A DNA stretch of 64,000 nucleotides from Candidatus Cloacimonadales bacterium (GTDB lineage Bacteria > Cloacimonadota > Cloacimonadia > Cloacimonadales > JAIOQZ01): positions 1,152,001 to 1,216,000 of the forward strand of contig CAXXTU010000002.1 of NCBI GenBank assembly GCA_963662655.2, read 5' to 3'. The position numbers were made by a program, and so were the translations under genes. Shown here piece by piece: positions 33,418 to 42,689 of this stretch; positions within the stretch are counted from its first letter, which is position 1; every line of letters starts with the position of its first letter. Under the pieces are notes generated by a model. The model was not told the DNA's origin, did no database searches, and worked only from the letters and a program-made list of their open reading frames with translations.

Positions 33418-34344
33418 TTAAATCTTTTCCAGAATCTTTCGGACCGTATTGTATCGAGTGCGATACTTCGCCCTCTTCCCCGAACTGCCGTGTATCATTT
33501 TTGTGTAGAATTGAAGCGACTTCCATGAGAACACCAGGCGTAGGAGCATCCGAATCAGGCTGTGGCGATGGAAATGATGTTTTTTTATATAATGTAGAGC
33601 GCTCTCCTTCTCAGCTACCTTGAAGATGTCGTACTCTCCTACAGGAAGCGAATCCCGCGTTGCGCAATGCTTGTGAAGCGCTTTGTACTGAGGAAACCAG
33701 TGGTTATGCTTCCCGGTAACATCGCGAACCATCTTGCACAGATCAACATCCTCGTAATACATGAAGATGCCGTCATCGAATCCCCCGACTCGATCGAAAT
33801 CGACTTTTCGTATCAGCATCAAAGCGCCCGTTACCCAATCCACAACGATTTCACGTTGATAATCCGTCCTGTAATTCGCGTACCTGCGACAGTATTTCGA
33901 GGGTATCTTCTTGCACAGGGGGATTTCATTCGCGACAACGAGCATTGGTGGCGGGAAGAAGGAGAAGGTCTTTTGCGACGATCCGTCGGGCAATACCAGT
34001 TTGGTACCGGAAATCCCCGCGTTGAGCTGTTTGTGCTTCTCGATAAGCTCCGCCAGGAAATCCTCCTGGATGATGATGTCCGAATTCAGGATAAGAAGAA
34101 AATCCCCCTCGGCGTGCCTCACCCCGAGGTTCATTGCACGCCCATAGCCGAGATTCTCCGCGGATTCAATGACCTGCACTCCGCTGAACGGATCTCGTAT
34201 CCTCCGCACCGAGTCGTCCCCCGATGCGTTATCCACGACGATGATCTCGCTGGAAATCGAATGGATGTTCTCTAGAATGCTGGCGATGCATTCGCAAGTC
34301 ATCTCCGGTGTACGGTAGTTTACAATAATAATCGATACTTCCAT
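33418..34344 (-). CDS. Glycosyltransferase family 2
   Basis: VSIIIVNY, IIVVDNASGD, NLGYGRAMN, LNSD, WVTGALML, GFDDGIFMYYEDVDLC. Confidence 0.92.
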   Translation of the reverse strand: MEVSIIIVNYRTPEMTCECIASILENIHSISSEIIVVDNASGDDSVRRIRDPFSGVQVIESAENLGYGRAMNLGVRHAEGDFLLILNSDIIIQEDFLAELIEKHKQLNAGISGTKLVLPDGSSQKTFSFFPPPMLVVANEIPLCKKIPSKYCRRYANYRTDYQREIVVDWVTGALMLIRKVDFDRVGGFDDGIFMYYEDVDLCKMVRDVTGKHNHWFPQYKALHKHCATRDSLPVGEYDIFKVAEKESALHYIKKHHFHRHSLIRMLLRLVFSWKSLQFYTKMIHGSSGKRAKYRTRYNTVRKILEKI

Positions 34345-34648
34345 GGGGCAATGAGCGGAGCTCAAATATTTTTGTCAACTCTGATCTGATGCATGAACGG
34401 AAACGATAAATCCCGCTTCTGAGTCATACTGTTTCTCATAGCAGATACCTCCAGACGCAATTTCAGCTCTAAATGCTTCGTCTAGCCCGAGATAAATCTT
34501 TTTGCACATGAGAAACTATATATACGGGATTCCCGGACATCGGTTTTATATCCGGGAAATCATTGACAATTGATCCTTGTTATGCTCGTGTTGTGAATGT
34601 GTGTAATTCTCGAATTCACATCTGACTACACGATAATGAGGTACATTT

Positions 34649-34876
34649 ATGCCAGGATTCGAACCCGTCACACTCGATCAATGGATCGAAGATATCCTTC
34701 GGAAATACCCTGATTCACAGGATTTCCTGAGCAAGCGTGGGATCGTTTGCGTTATGTGCGGAGAGCCTGTTTGGGGTTCTCTGGATGAGCAGATGGATGA
34801 GAAAGGTTTCGACGACGCAAAGAAAAAACAACTTCTAGAATCGCTCAATGAATTCCTTGAAATCCAAAAAGGATAG
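34649..34876 (+). CDS. Small DUF1858-like protein
   Basis: IEDILRKYP...FL..RGIVCVMCGE..WGSL; RBS GAGG. Confidence 0.7.
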   Translation: MPGFEPVTLDQWIEDILRKYPDSQDFLSKRGIVCVMCGEPVWGSLDEQMDEKGFDDAKKKQLLESLNEFLEIQKG

Positions 34877-34906
34877 GTTTAAAGTTCGTAAAGAAATAAA
34901 TTGTGG

Positions 34907-34936
34907 TTGACACGTGTTGTGATTCATGACTATTAT
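34907..34936 (+). promoter_or_regulatory. Sigma-70-type promoter of the oxidoreductase operon
   Basis: TTGACA-N18-TATTAT. Confidence 0.5.
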
Positions 34937-35030
34937 GACCAGTTATTTCTGTTTTTTAACGAAGTAGCGCGATTATAATAAAATACAATCTGCGCGAAAT
35001 CCGCATTTCCCGCAGTGAAGGAGGATGTGA

Positions 35031-36323
35031 ATGCTTGAAATGCAGATCGAGAAAATGCATCAGGCTCACAAGATTGTTGCCGACGCTCCCTTCGAAATTG
35101 TGCAGTTGAATCGCGGTTATGCCAATCGCACATTGCACATTGACATCAGTTCGAACACAATTGAAACCAAGCCCGTTACCCAGCAGATGAAAGACCTTTG
35201 GATCGGTGGGAAAGGATTCGACCTTTGGCTCACCTTTCAGTTAATCAACAGGGATACCAAATGGGACAGCCCTGAAAATCCCCTGTGCTTCAGCTCGGGG
35301 CCGCTTGGTGGCACAACTTCATTCCCGGGTTCTGGTAAAACCATTGCCACGACGATCTCACCTCTCACCCACTCAATGATGGACTGCAACGTCGGTGGAT
35401 ATTTCGGACCCTACCTGAAATTTGCAGGATTCGACGCGTTGAGCGTAGCCGGAAAGGCCGATGAGGAAACCATCGTTGTCATCGATGCCGTGAAAGCGCG
35501 CATCACCATCGAGCAAGCGCCGATGGAAAGCGTCGATTCACATCTCCTTGCGGAAGAGCTTACAGAAATGTACGCCGACGACGAGCTGGACAAGCGAAAC
35601 ATCGCCATCATCTCGGCAGGTCGCGGCGCTCAGCATAGCCGTATGGGCGTTCTCAATTTTTCATTTTACGACTGGCGTCGTCGCGTGGCTCGTCTCAAAC
35701 AAGCCGGCCGCGGCGGTTTGGGAACCGTGTTCCGCGATAAAAAACTCAAAGCGATCGTTATCAAGAATCGCGGGATTACACCTGCGTGGCGCGTGCACGA
35801 AAGCAAGGCCGCCCTCAAGATGCGCCCGAAAGAGCTCAAGAAGGTTCCCGACGAAAAGATGCACACCATCTGCGACATCATCGCCAAGTGGAACCGCGAT
35901 CCCGAGTACGTCATCGAGATGATGCAGGACATACAGAACGAGTTCCGCTGTATACCGCAGGCTGCGATCGACGAGCTGACCGCGCAGACGGGAACGCCCC
36001 GTTCCTGGCTCTATCATATCGCTACATTCTATAAAGCTTTCAGTCTGGAAGAAAAAGGCGAAACCATCATCCAGGTCTGTATGGGAACCGCATGCCACGT
36101 GAAAGGCTCCGCGAAGATTCTCGATGAATTCGAGCGCGAGTTGGGCTGCCCCGTGGGCGGAACGACCGAAGACCGCAAGTTCAGCCTGGAAGGCGTTGCC
36201 TGCCTGGGAGCGTGCTCCATCGCGCCGGTGGTGAAAATCGGCGAGGAAGTTCACGGCGGCGTGCAGGTCAAGGACGTCAGGAAACTGATCGAACAAGCCA
36301 AGAAGGAGAAGAACCATGCGTAA
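35031..36323 (+). CDS. Fusion: aldehyde:ferredoxin oxidoreductase N-terminal domain + NuoE/HydC-like [2Fe-2S] domain
   Basis: GYANRTLHIDIS, IGGKG, ISPLT, GGYFGPYLKFAGFD, AGRGGLGTV..KKLKAIVI; then ATFYKAF, VCMGTACHVKG, VACLGACSIAP. Confidence 0.9.
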   Translation: MLEMQIEKMHQAHKIVADAPFEIVQLNRGYANRTLHIDISSNTIETKPVTQQMKDLWIGGKGFDLWLTFQLINRDTKWDSPENPLCFSSGPLGGTTSFPGSGKTIATTISPLTHSMMDCNVGGYFGPYLKFAGFDALSVAGKADEETIVVIDAVKARITIEQAPMESVDSHLLAEELTEMYADDELDKRNIAIISAGRGAQHSRMGVLNFSFYDWRRRVARLKQAGRGGLGTVFRDKKLKAIVIKNRGITPAWRVHESKAALKMRPKELKKVPDEKMHTICDIIAKWNRDPEYVIEMMQDIQNEFRCIPQAAIDELTAQTGTPRSWLYHIATFYKAFSLEEKGETIIQVCMGTACHVKGSAKILDEFERELGCPVGGTTEDRKFSLEGVACLGACSIAPVVKIGEEVHGGVQVKDVRKLIEQAKKEKNHA

Positions 36324-38196
36324 ACTCTCACCCCATGATATTCCTCGCATCGCCGGTGAAGAGAAAGCACGTCAGGCAGCCTGGAAAGGCATGCTGATGG
36401 TATGTACGGGAACCGGCTGCGTTTCCGCGCATGGCTTCGATATTCTTCACGCGCTCCAGAAAGAGATTAAGGACGCCGGACTGGATAACGAGTGGGTCGC
36501 AGTGGGAACCGGATGTAACGGTTTCTGCGCAGCGGGTCCCATCGTCGTGGTCCAGCCGCAGGGCGTGTTCTATCAGAAAGTGAAAATCGAAGATACAAAG
36601 ACGATCGTCGATGAGCACCTCAAGGGCGGAAGTCCCGTTGAAAAGCTCCTGTTCAAGGATCCGGTCAGCGGAGTTGTCGCTCAAACGATGGACGAGATCG
36701 GCTTCTTCCGTAAACAAGAGCTGATCGCGCTTCGCAACAAAGGTCTCATCGATCCCGAGAATATACAACACTATATCGCGCGGGGCGGATACGACGCATT
36801 GCGCAAAATCCTCGAACGCCAGGAGCCGGAGGCCGTGATCGATGAAATCATCGCCTCGGGAATCCGCGGACGCGGCGGCGGCGGCTTCCCCTCCGGAATC
36901 AAATGGAGATCGGGTCGCAAGGCAGCCGAAGATCGCAACGAGGAAATCTACGTGGTTTGTAACGCCGACGAAGGCGATCCGGGTGCGTACATGGATCGCA
37001 GCATCATCGAGACCGACCCGCACTCCGTAATCGAAGGTATGCTGATCGGCGGTTTCGCCGTTGGAGCGAAGGAAGGCTTCGTCTACATGCGCAAGGAATA
37101 CCCGCTGGCCATGGATCGTCTGCACATCGCGATCGACCAGGCAAGGGAGGCGGGTCTTCTGGGTGAAAACATCCTCGGCACAAGTTTCTCGTTCGACATC
37201 CGCGTTCACCGCGGCGCAGGCGCGTTCGTCTGTGGCGAATCGACCGCGCTCATGGCATCGATGTCCGGTCGTGCGGGTGAACCGCGTGCGAAATACGTAC
37301 ACAATGTGGAATATGGATATAGAGATAAACCGACCGTCCTGAACAACGTCGAGACCTGGGCGAACATCCCCGTCATTATCGAAAAGGGAGCTCAGTGGTT
37401 CGCGAGTATCGGCTCGGGCGACGTGAGCGAAAGTCCGTGGGGCGGCTCCAGCGGCGCGAAGGTATTCTCGCTGGTGGGAGACATCCGCAACACGGGGCTC
37501 GTGGAAGCGCCAATGGGAATATCGCTTCGTGAGATCATTGAGGATATCGGCGGCGGTATCCCTAACGGACGGCAGTTCAAAGCCGTGCAGACGGGCGGAC
37601 CGAGCGGCGGCTGTATCCCCGCTTCCATGTTGGACATGCCGGTCGATTTCGATTCACTTACCGAAGCCGGCTCCATGATGGGCTCCGGCGGTATGATCGT
37701 GATGGACGACCACACCTGCATGGTGGACGTAGCGCGCTACTTCGTCGATTTTCTCGTCGATGAGAGCTGCGGAAAGTGCACGCCGTGTCGCGAGGGACTC
37801 TACCACATGCGAAACATCCTTCAGCGCATCTGCGACGGCGAAGGAAAAGAGAGCGACATCGATACCCTGGAAGAGCTGGCGAACACCATTCGCGAAACCA
37901 GCCTCTGCCAGCTAGGCGCGAGTGCGCCCAATCCTGTGCTTTCCACGCTGCGCTACTTCCGCGATGAATACGAAGAACACATCCGTGACAGGAAATGCCG
38001 CGCCGGCGTTTGTAAAGCGCTGATCCGCTACGAAATCAACGACAAGTGTATCGGTTGTACCGCGTGCGCGAGGGCCTGCCCGGTCAACGCGATTACCGGT
38101 GAAACCAAAAAGCTGCACGTTATCGACGCGGAGGCCTGCATCAAGTGCGGCATCTGCTACGAAACCTGTAAATTCGGCGCTGTGGAGGTGAAGTAA
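36316..38196 (+). CDS. NuoF/HydB-like FMN/NADH-binding subunit with N-terminal [2Fe-2S] and C-terminal 2x[4Fe-4S]
   Basis: VCTGTGC..CNGFC, GRGGGGFP, NADEGDPGAYMDR, GAGAFVCGE, ESCGKCTPCREG, CIGCTACARACP, CIKCGICYETC. Confidence 0.93.
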   Translation: MRKLSPHDIPRIAGEEKARQAAWKGMLMVCTGTGCVSAHGFDILHALQKEIKDAGLDNEWVAVGTGCNGFCAAGPIVVVQPQGVFYQKVKIEDTKTIVDEHLKGGSPVEKLLFKDPVSGVVAQTMDEIGFFRKQELIALRNKGLIDPENIQHYIARGGYDALRKILERQEPEAVIDEIIASGIRGRGGGGFPSGIKWRSGRKAAEDRNEEIYVVCNADEGDPGAYMDRSIIETDPHSVIEGMLIGGFAVGAKEGFVYMRKEYPLAMDRLHIAIDQAREAGLLGENILGTSFSFDIRVHRGAGAFVCGESTALMASMSGRAGEPRAKYVHNVEYGYRDKPTVLNNVETWANIPVIIEKGAQWFASIGSGDVSESPWGGSSGAKVFSLVGDIRNTGLVEAPMGISLREIIEDIGGGIPNGRQFKAVQTGGPSGGCIPASMLDMPVDFDSLTEAGSMMGSGGMIVMDDHTCMVDVARYFVDFLVDESCGKCTPCREGLYHMRNILQRICDGEGKESDIDTLEELANTIRETSLCQLGASAPNPVLSTLRYFRDEYEEHIRDRKCRAGVCKALIRYEINDKCIGCTACARACPVNAITGETKKLHVIDAEACIKCGICYETCKFGAVEVK

Positions 38197-40187
38197 TGGA
38201 AAAGGTCAATATCATCATCAACGGCAAAGAAGTAACCGTCCCGAAAGATACCTACCTGCTCAAGGCGATGCAGAACGAGGGAATCACCGTTCCGACGCTG
38301 TGCCACCACAAGGATCTTACTCCTTCCGGCACGTGCCGTCTCTGCGTGGTCGAGATCGAGCAGAACGGGAAAAAGAAAATCGTTACGAGTTGCAACTATC
38401 CGGTTCGCAGCGAGATAAAAGTAGAAACCGATAGCGAGCGGATCAAGCAGCATCGCAAGATACTGGCGGAACTCTACCTCGGTCGCTGGCCCAACGTGCC
38501 GGTGATCAAAGATATCGCCAAACGCTGCGGTGTTTCGGAGAGCCGTTTCACGAGTGAAATGACCGAAGAGAGCGAGAAGGCTTGCATCCTCTGTACACAT
38601 TGCGTACGCGGCTGCCACGAGTTCATCATGGAAGACATCCTCGATTTCGCCGGACGCGGAATCAAGCGCCACCTGACGATGCCATTCGGTGAAGTCGATC
38701 CGCATTGCATCGGCTGCACGAGTTGCGCATACGTCTGCCCCACCGGAGCGATCGAGGTGGTTGACGATCTCCAGAATCCGGTCAATCCGCAATTGATCCG
38801 TGATTACGGAATGCGCATCAACGCCGAGATGGCTACGCTGGACAAGAACCAGTGCCGCATGCGCGAAGTCGGAACCGCAAACATCGTCGATGTCATGGAC
38901 GCTTACGATCTGCTACCGGTGCACAACTATAAGTTCGGCAAGCATGAGAATACCAAGAATATCGATTCGAAAATGCTGAAGAAGAAGTATTTCACCCAGC
39001 AAATGCCGGATGGTTGCTGGAAAGGCTGTTCGATGGCGTGCGCCAAGACGGTGGATGGCTTCGAGCTGAAGACTGGCCCCTACAAAGGCGAGAAAGTATG
39101 TGTGGATGGACCGGAATACGAAACCGCAGCCGGCGCTGCCAACATGGGCTGTTTCGATGCCGACTTCCTGGTGGAATTCAACTTCTACTGCGATACATAC
39201 GGTGTGGACACCATCTCCATGGCTACCTGTACCGCCTTCGTGATGGAAGCATTCGAAGCAGGCCAGATCACGACCGAGCACACGGGCGGTCTCGTCCTCA
39301 ACTTCGGGGCCACGGACGCTGTCCTCGAAATGTTACACCAGATGGCTCGCGGAGAAGGGTTCGGCGTGGACGTCGGACAGGGTATCCGCTGGCTGAAGAA
39401 TAAGTGGGCCAAAGAATACGGAGCCGACGGCGATTTCCTTCAGGACATCGGTATGGAGATCAAGGGCCTGGAATATTCCGAGTATGTCTGCAAGGAATCT
39501 CTCGCACAGCAGGTGGGATATTCAGCCGCAGTAAAAGGTCCTCAGCACGACGAGGCTTGGCTGATCTTCATGGACATGGTCAACAACCAGATTCCGACCT
39601 TCGAGAACAAAGCGGAAGCGCTCTATTACTACCCGCTCTGGCGCACATGGTTTGGCTTGCTCGGCCTCTGTAAGCTCGTCTGGAACGATGTCGTTCCTCT
39701 CGATAACAGCAAGTTTCCGCCTCCGGTCGCAGCTAAGGTTCCCGGCCATGTGGAAGACTTCTTCAAGTTCTTCGAAGGTATGACGGGAATACCGCTGGAT
39801 GAGGAGAAGATGCTGGCGCAATCGGCTCGCGTCCACAACCTCCAGCGAATTATGTCTCGCATGCTGGGCTACGGAACGCGTAAGGACGATATACCGCCTT
39901 ACCGCGCTGTTGGCCCGGTGACCGAGGAAGAATTTCTCTCGCGTCAGGAGCGGTTCGACAAACAGCTCAAGGAATTGCTGGGACTCGATCCGGAGAAAAT
40001 GCAGCTCGATGAGAAACGTAAAGTACTGCGAGAGTATCGCTATCAACAATACAACAAAGCGCTCGATGCCGCTTACGAAAGACGTGGATGGACCCGGGAT
40101 GGCGTTCCGAAAGTCGAGCGTCTCAAGGAACTCGGTATCGATCTGCCGGAGCTGATTGCCATTATCCAGAATGATCAATCCGCATGA
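38196..40187 (+). CDS. Fusion: NuoG/HydA-like N-terminal Fe-S domains + aldehyde:ferredoxin oxidoreductase C-terminal domains
   Basis: PTLC..GTCRLC..TSC; CILCTHCVRGC; CIGCTSCAYVCPTGA; then LPVHNY, CWKGCSMAC, GPEYET, CDTYGVDTIS, KGLE, YERRGW..DGVP. Confidence 0.9.
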   Translation: MEKVNIIINGKEVTVPKDTYLLKAMQNEGITVPTLCHHKDLTPSGTCRLCVVEIEQNGKKKIVTSCNYPVRSEIKVETDSERIKQHRKILAELYLGRWPNVPVIKDIAKRCGVSESRFTSEMTEESEKACILCTHCVRGCHEFIMEDILDFAGRGIKRHLTMPFGEVDPHCIGCTSCAYVCPTGAIEVVDDLQNPVNPQLIRDYGMRINAEMATLDKNQCRMREVGTANIVDVMDAYDLLPVHNYKFGKHENTKNIDSKMLKKKYFTQQMPDGCWKGCSMACAKTVDGFELKTGPYKGEKVCVDGPEYETAAGAANMGCFDADFLVEFNFYCDTYGVDTISMATCTAFVMEAFEAGQITTEHTGGLVLNFGATDAVLEMLHQMARGEGFGVDVGQGIRWLKNKWAKEYGADGDFLQDIGMEIKGLEYSEYVCKESLAQQVGYSAAVKGPQHDEAWLIFMDMVNNQIPTFENKAEALYYYPLWRTWFGLLGLCKLVWNDVVPLDNSKFPPPVAAKVPGHVEDFFKFFEGMTGIPLDEEKMLAQSARVHNLQRIMSRMLGYGTRKDDIPPYRAVGPVTEEEFLSRQERFDKQLKELLGLDPEKMQLDEKRKVLREYRYQQYNKALDAAYERRGWTRDGVPKVERLKELGIDLPELIAIIQNDQSA

Positions 40188-40800
40188 GCTTTTCGCCCGT
40201 AACGTGCCCGGATCCACCGAAGCGCTTCAAAACGCTGCGGTGGGTCTGGCCGGTTGCGGCGGATTGGGCTCTAATGTTGCCGTCGCCCTGGCGAGAGCCG
40301 GGATCGGAAAGCTGATCCTCGCCGATTACGATCGCGTTGAATTAAGCAATTTAAATCGGCAACACTATTTTCTTTCCGATGTGGGAAAGTACAAGACAGA
40401 AGCTCTGTCAGACCATTTGAGGAACATCAACCCGCAAATAAAAATCGAACTTTTCATAAAAAAACTTGCGCCTGCCGATATAATCACAATTTTTGGTCAA
40501 GCTGACGTTCTGATCGAAGCATTCGACAGAGCGGAAGCGAAGCAGTGGTTGATTGAGACATGGAGCAAGGCCTTTCCCAGCAGACCGATTATCGTTGGTA
40601 ACGGACTTGCCGGCTTGGGTGCAACAGAATCGCTTATCGTCCGTAGAATGGGACATATCTGGTTTTGCGGCGACGGCTTCAGCGACGCGAATATCGGGCT
40701 TTCAGCTCCACGCGTCGGGATCGTGGCGATGATGCAAGCGAATGTCGCAATCGAACTTCTTGGAAAGGAATCTCATGATACTGGTCAACGACCGAGATGA
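40171..40800 (+). CDS. thiF: ThiF/MoeB-family sulfur-carrier adenylyltransferase
   Basis: GLAGCGGLGS, DYDRVELSNLNRQ, EAFD, APRVGIVA. Confidence 0.82.
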   Translation: MINPHELFARNVPGSTEALQNAAVGLAGCGGLGSNVAVALARAGIGKLILADYDRVELSNLNRQHYFLSDVGKYKTEALSDHLRNINPQIKIELFIKKLAPADIITIFGQADVLIEAFDRAEAKQWLIETWSKAFPSRPIIVGNGLAGLGATESLIVRRMGHIWFCGDGFSDANIGLSAPRVGIVAMMQANVAIELLGKESHDTGQRPR

Positions 40801-40975
40801 AGTTAGGTTTCACGAAGGTATAACCGTACGGGAAGTTCTGGACGCGATGGGCTATGATTGGGCATTATTGACCGTAACAGTCAACGAAACATTTGTCCCT
40901 CCGGAAGAATATCGCGCCTATGTCGTTCCCGACAACGCCGATTTCAAGGCGATGCATCTGTTCCATGGCGGATGA
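40775..40975 (+). CDS. thiS: ThiS/MoaD-family sulfur carrier
   Basis: 66 aa ubiquitin-like size, MILVN..., C-terminal HGG. Confidence 0.8.
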   Translation: MILVNDRDEVRFHEGITVREVLDAMGYDWALLTVTVNETFVPPEEYRAYVVPDNADFKAMHLFHGG

Positions 40976-41162
40976 TCTAACGATCGTCTTCGTTGGGTTA
41001 GTTGAACTCAAATGAAAAAAAGACTGAATATTAAGATTATCAATCGTAATCCACGATTCAATGCGCATTTTATGAGCGTTTTCGCCAACGAATAACGAAC
41101 ACATCCTGTATTTCTACAAATCAATCTGACACTATAAATCTATCTACATGGAGGAAAACACT

Positions 41163-42689
41163 ATGCAAGCATTCTTACAACGACTGGGCATCAAAGAAGT
41201 GAATCCTGGCGCATACTGCGGTCGCTGGCTGGACACTCAGGGTGAAGTCATCGACGTATACTCTCCGATCGACGATTCCCTGATTGCGAAAGTTAAATCG
41301 GCCACGGTTGAGGATTATGACATTGTGGCTCAAGAAGCTCGCGAAGCCTTCAAAACCTGGCGCATGATCCCCGCTCCGCAGCGTGGCGAAATCGTACGTC
41401 AATTGGGCGAAGAACTCCGCAAACACAAGGAAGACCTCGGCAAGCTCGTTACACTTGAAATGGGCAAGATATACACCGAAGGTCTTGGTGAAGTTCAGGA
41501 AATGATCGACATGGCCGACTTCTGCGTGGGGCTCTCCCGTCAGCTTTACGGAATGACGACCCACTCCGAGCGCCCGTTCCACCGCATGTACGAGCAGTGG
41601 CATCCGCTGGGCGTGGTGGGGATCATCTCCGCTTTCAATTTCCCGGTGGCCGTGTGGTCGTGGAACGCGTTTATCGCGGCAGCATGTGGCGACACCATGA
41701 TCTGGAAGCCGTCGTCATCCACTCCGCTTACCGCAATCGCGATTCAGAACATTGTTCACAATGTTCTGGAAGCCAACGACATCCCCAAGGGAATCTTCGG
41801 AATGGTTATCGGACGCGGAAGCACCATTGGCGAGAAGCTGATCAACGATCCAGAGGTCCCGCTTATCAGCGCGACCGGTAGCTGCGCTATGGGCAAGAGA
41901 GTTCACCAGGCAGCGGCAAAGCGTTATGCACAGGTGATTCTCGAGCTCGGCGGCAACAACGCTGTTGTCGTGATGGAAGACGCCAACGTCGAGCTGGCGC
42001 TGAAAGCCGTTCTCTTCGGCGCGGTCGGAACCGCAGGACAGCGCTGTACGTCAACCCGCCGTGTTCTCATCCACGAATCCCTGCACGACAAATTCGTCGA
42101 ATCGCTCAAGAAGGCTTACTCGTCCGTGCCAATCGGCGATCCGCTCGATGGTAAGACCCTGATGGGACCGCTCGTGGACGAAGCAGCCGTCAAGGCATAC
42201 AAGAACGCGATCGAACTCGCGAAAGAACAGGGTGGTAAAATCGTTTACGGAGGTGAAAGCGTTGAATCCGGCGTTCCCGGCAAGCTTTACGTCAAGCCGA
42301 CCATCGTTCTAGCTGAAAACGACTGGCCTATCGTGCAGAACGAAACCTTCGCACCGATACTTTACATCATCAAGATCAAGGACATCGATCATGCGATTGA
42401 AATCCACAACGCAGTTCCGCAGGGACTTTCCTCGGCGATCTTCACCAACAACCTTCGCTACAGCGAACGCTTCCTCTCCCACGCCGGCAGCGATTGCGGT
42501 ATTGCCAACGTCAATATCGGAACCTCCGGAGCGGAGATTGGCGGGGCGTTTGGCGGTCAGAAGGAAACCGGCGGTGGTCGCGAGGCCGGCAGCGACGCAT
42601 GGAAGGCTTACATGCGCCGTCAGACCAACACCATCAACTGGTCAACCGAGATTCCTCTCGCACAGGGTGTGAAATTCGATATCGATTGA
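41163..42689 (+). CDS. Aldehyde dehydrogenase family 7 (aminoadipate-semialdehyde/P6C dehydrogenase-like)
   Basis: GEVQEMID, SAFNFPVAVW, LELGGNN, GTAGQRCT, ETFAP, GAEIGGAFGG.KETGGGRE.GSDAWKAYMRRQT. Confidence 0.93.
   Translation: MQAFLQRLGIKEVNPGAYCGRWLDTQGEVIDVYSPIDDSLIAKVKSATVEDYDIVAQEAREAFKTWRMIPAPQRGEIVRQLGEELRKHKEDLGKLVTLEMGKIYTEGLGEVQEMIDMADFCVGLSRQLYGMTTHSERPFHRMYEQWHPLGVVGIISAFNFPVAVWSWNAFIAAACGDTMIWKPSSSTPLTAIAIQNIVHNVLEANDIPKGIFGMVIGRGSTIGEKLINDPEVPLISATGSCAMGKRVHQAAAKRYAQVILELGGNNAVVVMEDANVELALKAVLFGAVGTAGQRCTSTRRVLIHESLHDKFVESLKKAYSSVPIGDPLDGKTLMGPLVDEAAVKAYKNAIELAKEQGGKIVYGGESVESGVPGKLYVKPTIVLAENDWPIVQNETFAPILYIIKIKDIDHAIEIHNAVPQGLSSAIFTNNLRYSERFLSHAGSDCGIANVNIGTSGAEIGGAFGGQKETGGGREAGSDAWKAYMRRQTNTINWSTEIPLAQGVKFDID

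Follow-up and report, generated by a model that had tools for sequence, protein, structure and literature searches.

In a 64,000-nucleotide (nt) stretch of the genome of a Candidatus Cloacimonadales bacterium (GenBank assembly GCA_963662655.2, contig CAXXTU010000002.1; hereafter the window), three overlapping open reading frames (ORFs) on the plus strand at 35031-40187, with exact coordinates and reading frames, appear to encode a tungsten-dependent oxidoreductase (WOR) of the aldehyde oxidoreductase (AOR) family whose two halves sit on separate chains, each joined to one end of a BfuABC core. As the best explanation of the whole, held with a little more belief than doubt, we propose a split WOR that is predicted to bifurcate electrons and to work with an imported tungsten cofactor (Tuco). 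No account of the split layout was found in the open literature, and it is apparently undescribed in print.

The domain assignments of the initial annotation, made from the sequence and its translations, agree with a Pfam scan. ORF1 (35031-36323, 430 amino acids (aa)) joins the first AOR domain (AFOR_N, residues 33-246, E 2e-47), through a new conserved P-A-W linker, to a BfuC/HydC/NuoE-type subunit (2Fe-2S_thioredx, 282-423, E 4e-42) whose best PDB matches are the HydC and WorC chains 8a6t_C and 9mqx_C. ORF2 is a full HydB-type protein with thioredoxin-like 2Fe-2S, Complex1_51K, SLBB, NADH_4Fe-4S and two Fer4 domains; its closest solved relatives are HydB and WorB, and its NAD-binding region is nearest WorB (9mqx_B), with CGES...PRxKYxH in common. 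Its sites comprise an N-terminal [2Fe-2S] cluster (C30/35/67/71), the FMN/NAD site and two C-terminal [4Fe-4S] clusters, and further B1 (C485/488/491/531) and a Zn/B2 site (C468, H555, C561, C566). ORF3 (38196-40187, 663 aa) opens with Fer2_4 and a 2x[4Fe-4S] domain, nearest WorA of Acetomicrobium mobile (9mqx_A, E 1e-40), and runs into the remaining AOR domains (AFOR_C, 207-648, E 3e-88), such that AFOR_N and AFOR_C are both over the Pfam cut-off and carried on two chains. As initially annotated, ORF3 shows neither an HxxxCxxC cluster nor an H-cluster (Fe_hyd) domain in the Pfam scan; true HydA proteins of the host are encoded elsewhere. With clusters named after PMC12318220, its BfuA arm has no A3, no A5/zinc finger and no WorS-recruiting helix. 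The predicted gene overlaps also hold, at 8 nt for ORF1/ORF2 and 1 nt for ORF2/ORF3 (TAATG), and they continue into a ThiF/ThiS pair at 40171-40975 that had gone unmentioned (17 nt for ORF3/thiF, 26 nt for thiF/thiS). The three chains very probably assemble.

The layout is confirmed as that of a real and widespread family. A contig scan covering 24 of 64 parts gave 577 confirmed relatives among 600 stretches, and the best 80 loci were kept: the BfuA-AOR(C) fusion is present at 42 of them, the other 38 encoding intact WORs of ~720 aa. The 42 split loci divide into 15 three-gene loci, nine with ORF1 and ORF2 fused, one such fused locus with a frameshift, ten that are fused and shrunken, six cut by contig ends and one with a free N-domain gene; their titles name Cloacimonadota, Krumholzibacteriota, Aminicenantes, Myxococcota, Bdellovibrionota, Elusimicrobiota, Synergistota, Bacillota and others. 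The ORF3 fusion is present in all 120 of the best protein clusters listed (71-90% identity), and the same fusions in two of three other genomes of the genus. Among 41 genomes of the order, the host included (the kin), 29 bear aor, 12 in split and 17 in intact form, and their rows group with Cloacimonadota-titled records. Both junctions are covered, free of differences, by reads from two DNA runs; these share one sample, probably the source, and lend no independent support. All five modules are under purifying selection, with ratios of non-synonymous to synonymous change (dN/dS) of 0.02-0.07 against two same-genus genomes, dS being near saturation. The recurrence of the fusions rules out an assembly chimera, the refutation that the initial annotation had anticipated. 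That the locus is a relic or a chimera is scarcely credible: the host's missing cofactor pathway (below) would suit a relic, and against it stand the same junctions across many phyla, the purifying selection and the intact frames in kin.

The break falls in the loop after KALVV that joins AOR domains 1 and 2, and since intact relatives continue there with NLNNP, matching the DLQNP of ORF3, no AOR sequence was lost. Intact relatives are about 50% identical to the N half and about 60% to the C half. In trees of the two halves, which come from quick searches with support from the SH-like approximate likelihood-ratio test (SH-aLRT) only and from which four duplicate rows were removed beforehand, the fused-split forms make one clade nested among the intact forms (C half, 48 rows, SH-aLRT 100; N half, 43 rows, SH-aLRT 98); L050, labelled 'split' in the C-half tree, is a contig-truncated locus of the intact type. 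Together with the BfuB motifs kept in this copy, this supports the proposal that a hydCBA-type cassette was inserted into aor. The two loci whose N-domain gene is free fall outside the fused-split clade, and one of them, L147, has bfuC as a gene of its own with its own start, which suggests a stepwise origin: splitting and fusion to BfuA first, fusion to BfuC later. A single origin of all split forms, these two loci included, was not rejected by an approximately unbiased (AU) test on a 52-row subsample of the C half (p 0.41). A small polyferredoxin gene (127-140 aa) lies upstream at 27 distinct intact loci and at none of the split loci. At one Synergistia-titled locus (L020:7142-7844), two small toxin-antitoxin-like genes are inserted between bfuB and bfuA-aor.

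The catalytic residues were mapped by aligning the intact relative L062 to Pyrococcus furiosus AOR (PfAOR, 1aor), with residues as named in PMC13328260 and PMC12096430. Residues T227, E307, Y308, E309, Y430 and H451 of ORF3 correspond to the second-shell residues T243, E311, Y312, E313, Y427 and H448 of PfAOR, and C274/278/282/492 are the ligands of the AOR [4Fe-4S] cluster; both sets are invariant in 104 of 104 C halves. On ORF1, the pterin/Mg-binding side K103, N120, K223, Q224 and R227 corresponds to PfAOR R76, N93, R182, A183 and R186, and the N93 position is invariant in 96 N halves. These invariant sets include 26 sequences from MoaC-negative Cloacimonadota. The positions of N93, D338 and D343 are kept in this copy, and we take N93, the backbone of A183 and the motifs DxxGxD and DxxGLC to make the pterin/Mg contacts. 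At the ORF3 D338 column (PfAOR D343), Cys replaces Asp in 16 of 104 C halves, possibly as an extra metal ligand in a sub-branch. A single-chain model of ORF3 has a mean predicted local distance difference test score (pLDDT) of 80, and its AOR fold is good and matches formaldehyde oxidoreductase (FOR), WorL and AOR. From homology and conservation, chains 1 and 3 would close a bis-pyranopterin pocket between them.

Markers of bifurcation have been given in Thermotoga maritima numbering as A/E232, M234, F367 and GGPSG (PMC7311640). By offset to 7p5h_B, ORF2 has A224, M226 and G427-G431 (GGPSG). Of the two motifs initially put forward, GAYMDR was well chosen, holding the markers A224 and M226; FKAVQ was not, the marker being the GGPSG just after it (427-431). 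All Cys/His cluster ligands and flavin loops of ORF2 are kept (FMN site, B1-B5), as is C1 of the BfuC part, and the Bfu part of this copy has a dN/dS of 0.04-0.06. On these features, bifurcation by the enzyme seems probable. An NADP specificity read from the CGES motif was dropped, since the NAD-binding WorB carries the same motif. The host has six Complex1_51K genes (L131, L132, L133), which belong to two FeFe-hydrogenase operons (one with two bfuB), an Nfn-like Bfu, an RnfC-sized gene and this operon.

The host genome is 98.95% complete in two contigs, and its single AFOR_C match is this gene. Profile searches for MoeA_N, MoaC, MoaE and Mob_synth_C (the MoaA C-terminus), each of which finds matches in 11 of 14 controls, gave no match in it. 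MogA is also missing, the sole MoCF_biosynth match being CinA, and same-order MoeA, MoaC, MOSC and WtpA sequences gave no tblastn match at E 1e-3, while MoaA found generic radical S-adenosylmethionine (SAM) proteins only. TupA, WtpA and ModA were not found; the binding proteins present are of PstS, sulfate, PotD and ThiB types, and the host encodes a sulfate ATP-binding cassette (ABC) system. Two PF12849 matches considered as TupA proved to be PstS, and the sole PF00384 match is a partial domain in a 1136-aa Nfn-like BfuA. Across the 41 genomes of the order, MoaC occurs in three, MoeA in two and aor in 29; 26 of the 29 aor carriers have no MoaC, and this group takes in every one of the 12 split carriers as well as four further single-contig genomes. 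In the locus set, for which completeness is not given, MoaC occurs in 57 of 80 genomes (30 of the 42 with the split and 27 of the 38 with the intact form), and at six to eight loci the operon has moeA, a ModE-like gene and an ABC transporter of Wtp-like type beside it. Since the Moa pathway is missing in most of the order and tungsten genes stand beside the operon elsewhere, the family appears tungsten-linked and this lineage appears to have lost synthesis, leaving the host, as far as its genes tell, with no known route to Tuco. The initial annotation took tungstopterin for granted; no known genes for its synthesis were found in the host genome, which lay outside the view of that annotation. 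'Orphan molybdoproteins' in genomes that lack the pathway are a noted puzzle and a stated open question (PMC6147048). Because MoeA is missing too, the cofactor would most simply be imported whole, and we think it somewhat probable that the enzyme holds such an imported Tuco. Two kin have complete molybdenum cofactor (Moco) clusters, moeA-moaA-moaC-MOSC-mogA, with no moaE in the stretch (L126:10902-14675, L127:10183-13468), one of them following wtpABC and a riboswitch. In the single-contig genome G012, which has no MoaC or MoeA match, a canonical 603-aa AOR with MoaD and MoeB lies behind a riboswitch (L252:1048-4067).

A ThiF orthologue occurs in 25 of the 29 aor carriers of the order and in none of the 12 aor-less genomes, the four misses being assemblies of 90-500 contigs; the kin are not independent, so that this and the other co-occurrence counts are descriptive and overstate the association. 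In kin, thiF usually comes with thiS and often lies far from aor. A reading of the pair as thiamine genes was rejected because the host has no ThiG. From this distribution ThiF is likely dedicated to this WOR, with a role in its maturation, and aor-linked MoaD/MoeB genes were already known (PMC1779556). That ThiF tracks the enzyme in hosts without molybdopterin synthase argues against a role of the ThiS-like WorX only in pterin synthesis; instead, WorX and ThiF may finish, mature or repair a salvaged cofactor. A MobB-like GTPase that carries a putative Fe-S domain at its C-terminus (G000:C2:997971-998699 in the host; L202:5320-6057) is encoded in 33 of 41 kin and adjoins thiF-thiS in six. It was set aside as a partner for its weak phylogenetic profile (27 of 29 aor carriers, 6 of 12 aor-less genomes). 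A TIGR04317-like radical SAM protein was rejected as a partner; its score of 134 falls short of the cut-off of 380, and it is present in aor-less kin.

The Moco/Tuco riboswitch (RF01055) exceeds its cut-off in 33 of the 41 kin, 28 of the 29 aor-bearing and 5 of the 12 aor-less, with only part of the candidates scored per genome. Genes behind 39 of 61 matches were examined. In 21 cases the riboswitch fronts a lipoprotein, TonB-receptor or energy-coupling factor (ECF) S-component operon; 19 of these start with a lipoprotein of no known family, mostly followed by a TonB-receptor-like or ECF-S-like gene, one with a receptor and one with an S gene. Aldehyde dehydrogenases follow in 12 cases, 10 PruA-like and two of piperideine-6-carboxylate (P6C) type (three over cut-off, the others by BLAST). 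The remaining six are two canonical AORs, one split operon (G016), two WtpA and one Fe-S protein. The lipoprotein-TonB operons are candidates for outer-membrane uptake of a pterin cofactor; in L254:1083-3800, L261, L264, L269, L270, L272, L274, L277 and L278, the riboswitch is followed by a lipoprotein of ~270 aa without a Pfam match and a TonB-dependent receptor. In the host, an ECF-like operon (G000:C2:~512300-515907, minus strand; L286:804-4408) encodes an S component, an exported protein whose relatives match the molybdopterin-binding family PF00174, small lipoproteins and two ATPases, and may be the cofactor importer. Of the 41 kin, 30 have its S-like gene (26 of 29 aor carriers, 4 of 12 aor-less), and in 20 of these it lies within ~2 kb behind the riboswitch. 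Outside the kin, the gene is present in 3 of 19 MoaC-negative genomes and in none of 13 MoaC-positive ones from other phyla. No account of a riboswitch-controlled pterin-cofactor importer was found in the open literature.

The same riboswitches offer leads to the substrate. The switch of the host has no P3 and stands directly before PruA, an NAD-dependent glutamate gamma-semialdehyde dehydrogenase (G000:C2:2050521-2052302; L247); P3-less forms have been linked to Tuco, and repression by the cofactor was shown for the E. coli RNA (PMC2408646). An NAD-linked dehydrogenase behind a cofactor-repressed switch is what a metal-free backup would look like, as with B12 switches and B12-independent isozymes, a listed category (PMC3766115), and PruA would take over when the cofactor is short. 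G009 and G012 have, behind the riboswitch, an orthologue of the P6C dehydrogenase of the window, which is likely a metal-free counterpart of the enzyme rather than a subunit. At L057 and L063 the gene next to intact aor is PruA, and PruA or P6C dehydrogenases stand beside aor in five fetched loci (>59% identity) as well as in the window. In six Bacillota loci a SoxA/SoxB-like amino-acid dehydrogenase cluster lies beside intact aor; such clusters include proline dehydrogenases. A four-gene cluster of this kind in the host (G000:C2:3255047-3258186), 30-39% identical to the six, is a possible semialdehyde source. The best substrate of FOR is glutaric dialdehyde (PMC12096430). Riboswitch targets, gene neighborhoods and the FOR-like pocket together point to glutamate-5- and aminoadipate-6-semialdehyde, and action on such amino-acid semialdehydes is a fair possibility that still falls short of probable.

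We envision electrons passing from W to the AOR [4Fe-4S] cluster, on to A4, A2 and A1 of BfuA on the same chain, and into BfuB/C, where NAD+ and ferredoxin would be reduced in concert. The AOR cluster shares its chain with A4/A2, with ten residues of sequence between them at the junction, so that WorS and its nanowire would be bypassed, leaving one active site per Bfu core. A broader scheme, which we offer tentatively and expect to fail in at least some part, has Cloacimonadota as tungsten-cofactor auxotrophs: finished Tuco from the surrounding community would enter through riboswitch-controlled ECF/TonB import with a molybdopterin-binding-like protein, be completed by WorX/ThiF and serve a WorS-less split enzyme that turns glutamate-5-semialdehyde into glutamate with bifurcation of electrons to ferredoxin and NAD+, NAD-only PruA being switched on without cofactor. 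If true, this would mean that bacteria feed one another a pyranopterin cofactor in intact form, and that proline/ornithine catabolism has a new step that conserves energy.

Besides the relatedness of the kin, several observations weigh against the split, bifurcating, cofactor-importing WOR. The first concern the pocket. Clade-wide changes relative to PfAOR are R76K, R182K, K450E, Y452W and D489G, with I/L/V at K82; R76, R182, K450 and D489 are presumably pterin contacts. D489G, R182K and K82I/L/V fit an altered cofactor pocket, and in the ORF3 model pLDDT falls below 50 at 140-192, the 2x[4Fe-4S] domain, so that the model gives no cluster-to-cluster distance. The pocket changes speak for a WOR clade that is pterin-independent and holds some other metal-sulfur centre built with WorX/ThiF, as does the lack of a MoaC match in 12 of 42 split and 11 of 38 intact locus genomes, all Bipolaricaulota-titled loci among them. 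Yet FOR has R76K, K450E and Y452W too (K76-, E450- and W452-type residues) and binds Tuco; loci of Krumholzibacteriota type have genes for tungstate transport and Moco on the flanks of the split operon, a Moco/Tuco riboswitch fronts that operon in G016, and most locus genomes do have MoaC. We regard such a centre as very unlikely.

For bifurcation, the position of the F367 marker is ambiguous: a gapless offset gives A359, with F362 nearby and a Tyr of WorB opposite F362. Flavin/NADH parts of BfuB are gone from at least 10 of the 42 split loci, which makes bifurcation dispensable in the family. In these shrunken variants (L001, L005, L007, L016, L018, L030, L033, L034, L038, L041), flavin/NADH or C1/B3/B4 parts are gone and the B1 region is kept, a natural deletion series of the Bfu core. 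The repeated decay of the BfuB flavin motifs, with B1 and BfuA retained, would fit a Bfu part that does not bifurcate and acts as an NAD-only or ferredoxin-only outlet, or mainly as a scaffold replacing WorS. This copy, however, keeps all clusters and motifs under the constraint on the Bfu part noted above, and WorABCSL requires both acceptors (PMC9304861); we consider the non-bifurcating alternative rather unlikely.

As for import, 16 of the 19 MoaC-negative genomes outside the kin lack the ECF S-like gene, and four aor-less kin have it; in the host, the ECF-like operon has no riboswitch, no ECF T component was identified, and no homologues of the lipoprotein or TonB receptor were found. A metal-only (tungstate) importer combined with an unrecognised pterin pathway would give a similar pattern. 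The corresponding alternative, unlikely in our estimate, is the same enzyme with a cofactor made by an unrecognised route, perhaps involving WorX, ThiF and the MobB-like Fe-S protein, the riboswitch operon importing only tungstate or a precursor. It draws on the tracking of the enzyme by ThiF/ThiS, on the presence of the MobB-like gene in the host and next to thiF-thiS in six kin, on same-order Moco clusters in which a MOSC protein is already employed and MoaE is not seen, and on the host sulfate ABC transporter, of a type able to carry molybdate (PMC2408646). Against it, no candidate was found for the pterin ring steps, and the TIGR04317-like protein and the MobB-like gene both occur in aor-less kin, the former far under its cut-off. 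TonB receptors and ECF S-components, moreover, typically transport organic cofactors.

The features of the operon and its surroundings are collected in Table 1. The DUF1858-like gene stands beside the operon only in two same-genus loci, and its membership is doubtful. Counts of promoters and terminators are at chance level, and no Rfam RNA family matches within 34200-41300.

Table 1. Features of the split WOR operon and flanking genes (window coordinates)
Feature	Position	Strand	Basis and remarks
75-aa DUF1858-like protein, upstream	34649..34876	+	Weak Pfam and TIGR03980 matches below cut-off
Sigma-70-like site TTGACA-18-TATTAT	34907..34936	+	~95 nt before ORF1; 11/12 matches, total promoter count at chance level
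ORF1 part 1: WOR/AOR domain 1, aa 1-~250	35031..35780	+	Pfam AFOR_N, L062-1aor alignment, residue invariance
ORF1 part 2: linker and BfuC/HydC/NuoE, C1 [2Fe-2S] C350/C355/C391/C395	35781..36323	+	Pfam 2Fe-2S_thioredx, Cys positions
ORF2: intact BfuB/HydB	36316..38196	+	626 aa; Pfam, PDB matches, ligand positions
ORF3 part 1: BfuA Fe-S arm, A1 [2Fe-2S] C36/47/50/66 and two [4Fe-4S] C130-C181	38196..38765	+	
ORF3 part 2: WOR/AOR domains 2-3	38766..40187	+	Pfam AFOR_C; model matches FOR 1b25, WorL 9mqx_D, AOR 1aor
ThiF/MoeB-like adenylyltransferase	40171..40800	+	NCBIfam PRK08644 and thiF_fam2 over cut-off
ThiS/MoaD-like sulfur carrier 'WorX', 66 aa, GG end	40775..40975	+	TIGR01683 E 2e-6, below cut-off; adjoins thiF in most loci
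NAD-dependent P6C (aminoadipate semialdehyde) dehydrogenase	41148..42689	+	NF050084 over cut-off; ~170 nt beyond thiS

Among known systems, WorABCSL of A. mobile, a Class IV WOR (9mqx; PMC12318220, PMC9304861, PMC13328260), has in common with the split enzyme the WOR fold and the BfuABC core, a BfuA with A1, A2 and A4 and no A3, the CGES/KYxH NAD-site signature of BfuB and a WorX gene in the operon. In WorABCSL, electrons are described as passing from WorL through WorS to A4, A2 and A1 and on to BfuBC (PMC12318220). Here, by contrast, WorL comes in two pieces, one joined to BfuC and the other to BfuA; no WorS-like gene occurs at any split locus, so that no (SL)3 nanowire is expected; and the WorA zinc finger and adaptor helix are missing, the 9mqx_A match ending at query 191 and target 188 of 247 where AOR domain 2 begins. 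The WorL part is distant (even the intact relative L062 reaches only E 3e-50 against 9mqx_D), the published gene orders SLCBA and CBASL become L'-C, B, A-L'', and the host is without a Tuco pathway. By its sequence, the split enzyme thus departs from Class IV in two features, separate L and S subunits and the WorA adaptor, and is likely a 1:1 counterpart of the bifurcating WorABCSL that works without WorS. For Class IV, WorL is assigned to clades 62, 63 and 87 of a 92-clade WOR tree (PMC13328260).

In plan the split enzyme is closer to the Type 1 Bfu enzymes (FeFe-HydABC, Nfn-Bfu, Fdh-Bfu, F420-Bfu; PMC9304861) than to Class IV, as these too carry a catalytic domain fused to the BfuA C-terminus that feeds A4. 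The available text of PMC9304861 describes no WOR-type member, and here a second catalytic piece rides on BfuC; FeFe-hydrogenase HydABC further differs by the H-cluster domain that ORF3 lacks. The intact ~720-aa lineage (Bacteroidales, Clostridia, Cloacimonadota, Bipolaricaulota; e.g., Fervidicella metallireducens, L062), for which no characterised member was found, has identical pocket residues and the link to thiF-thiS; unlike the split form it is single-chain, often with the small polyferredoxin gene upstream. P. furiosus FOR (1b25) and AOR (1aor) are alike in fold, in the second-shell residues and four cluster Cys mapped above and, for FOR, in HxEAW; they differ in an identity of about 20% in structural alignment, in having D489 where the split enzyme has G, and in being neither split nor Bfu-fused. 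A survey of WORs picks proteins with both AOR domains on one chain (PMC13328260), a rule that leaves the split branch invisible to it.

On the cofactor side, known Moco/Tuco riboswitch regulons likewise have P3-less RNAs before WtpA and AORs (RF01055; PMC2408646, PMC3766115), whereas the targets named in the available text of these sources are metal transport, cofactor synthesis and cofactor-using enzymes, with no ECF/TonB importer or NAD-linked semialdehyde dehydrogenases. Orphan molybdoproteins likewise are pterin enzymes in genomes without the pathway, though those described are mostly of the dimethyl sulfoxide reductase and xanthine oxidase families (PMC6147048). The split enzyme would offer a minimal, one-site Bfu enzyme for studying BfuABC bifurcation, natural deletion variants included; a candidate importer, a sensor RNA and a putative backup enzyme make cofactor salvage directly testable; and riboswitch and neighborhood give a lead on what a WOR lineage found in anaerobic amino-acid degraders acts on. 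Taken together, what is new relative to these systems is, beyond the layout itself, the apparent cofactor auxotrophy, the importer candidate and the substrate leads.

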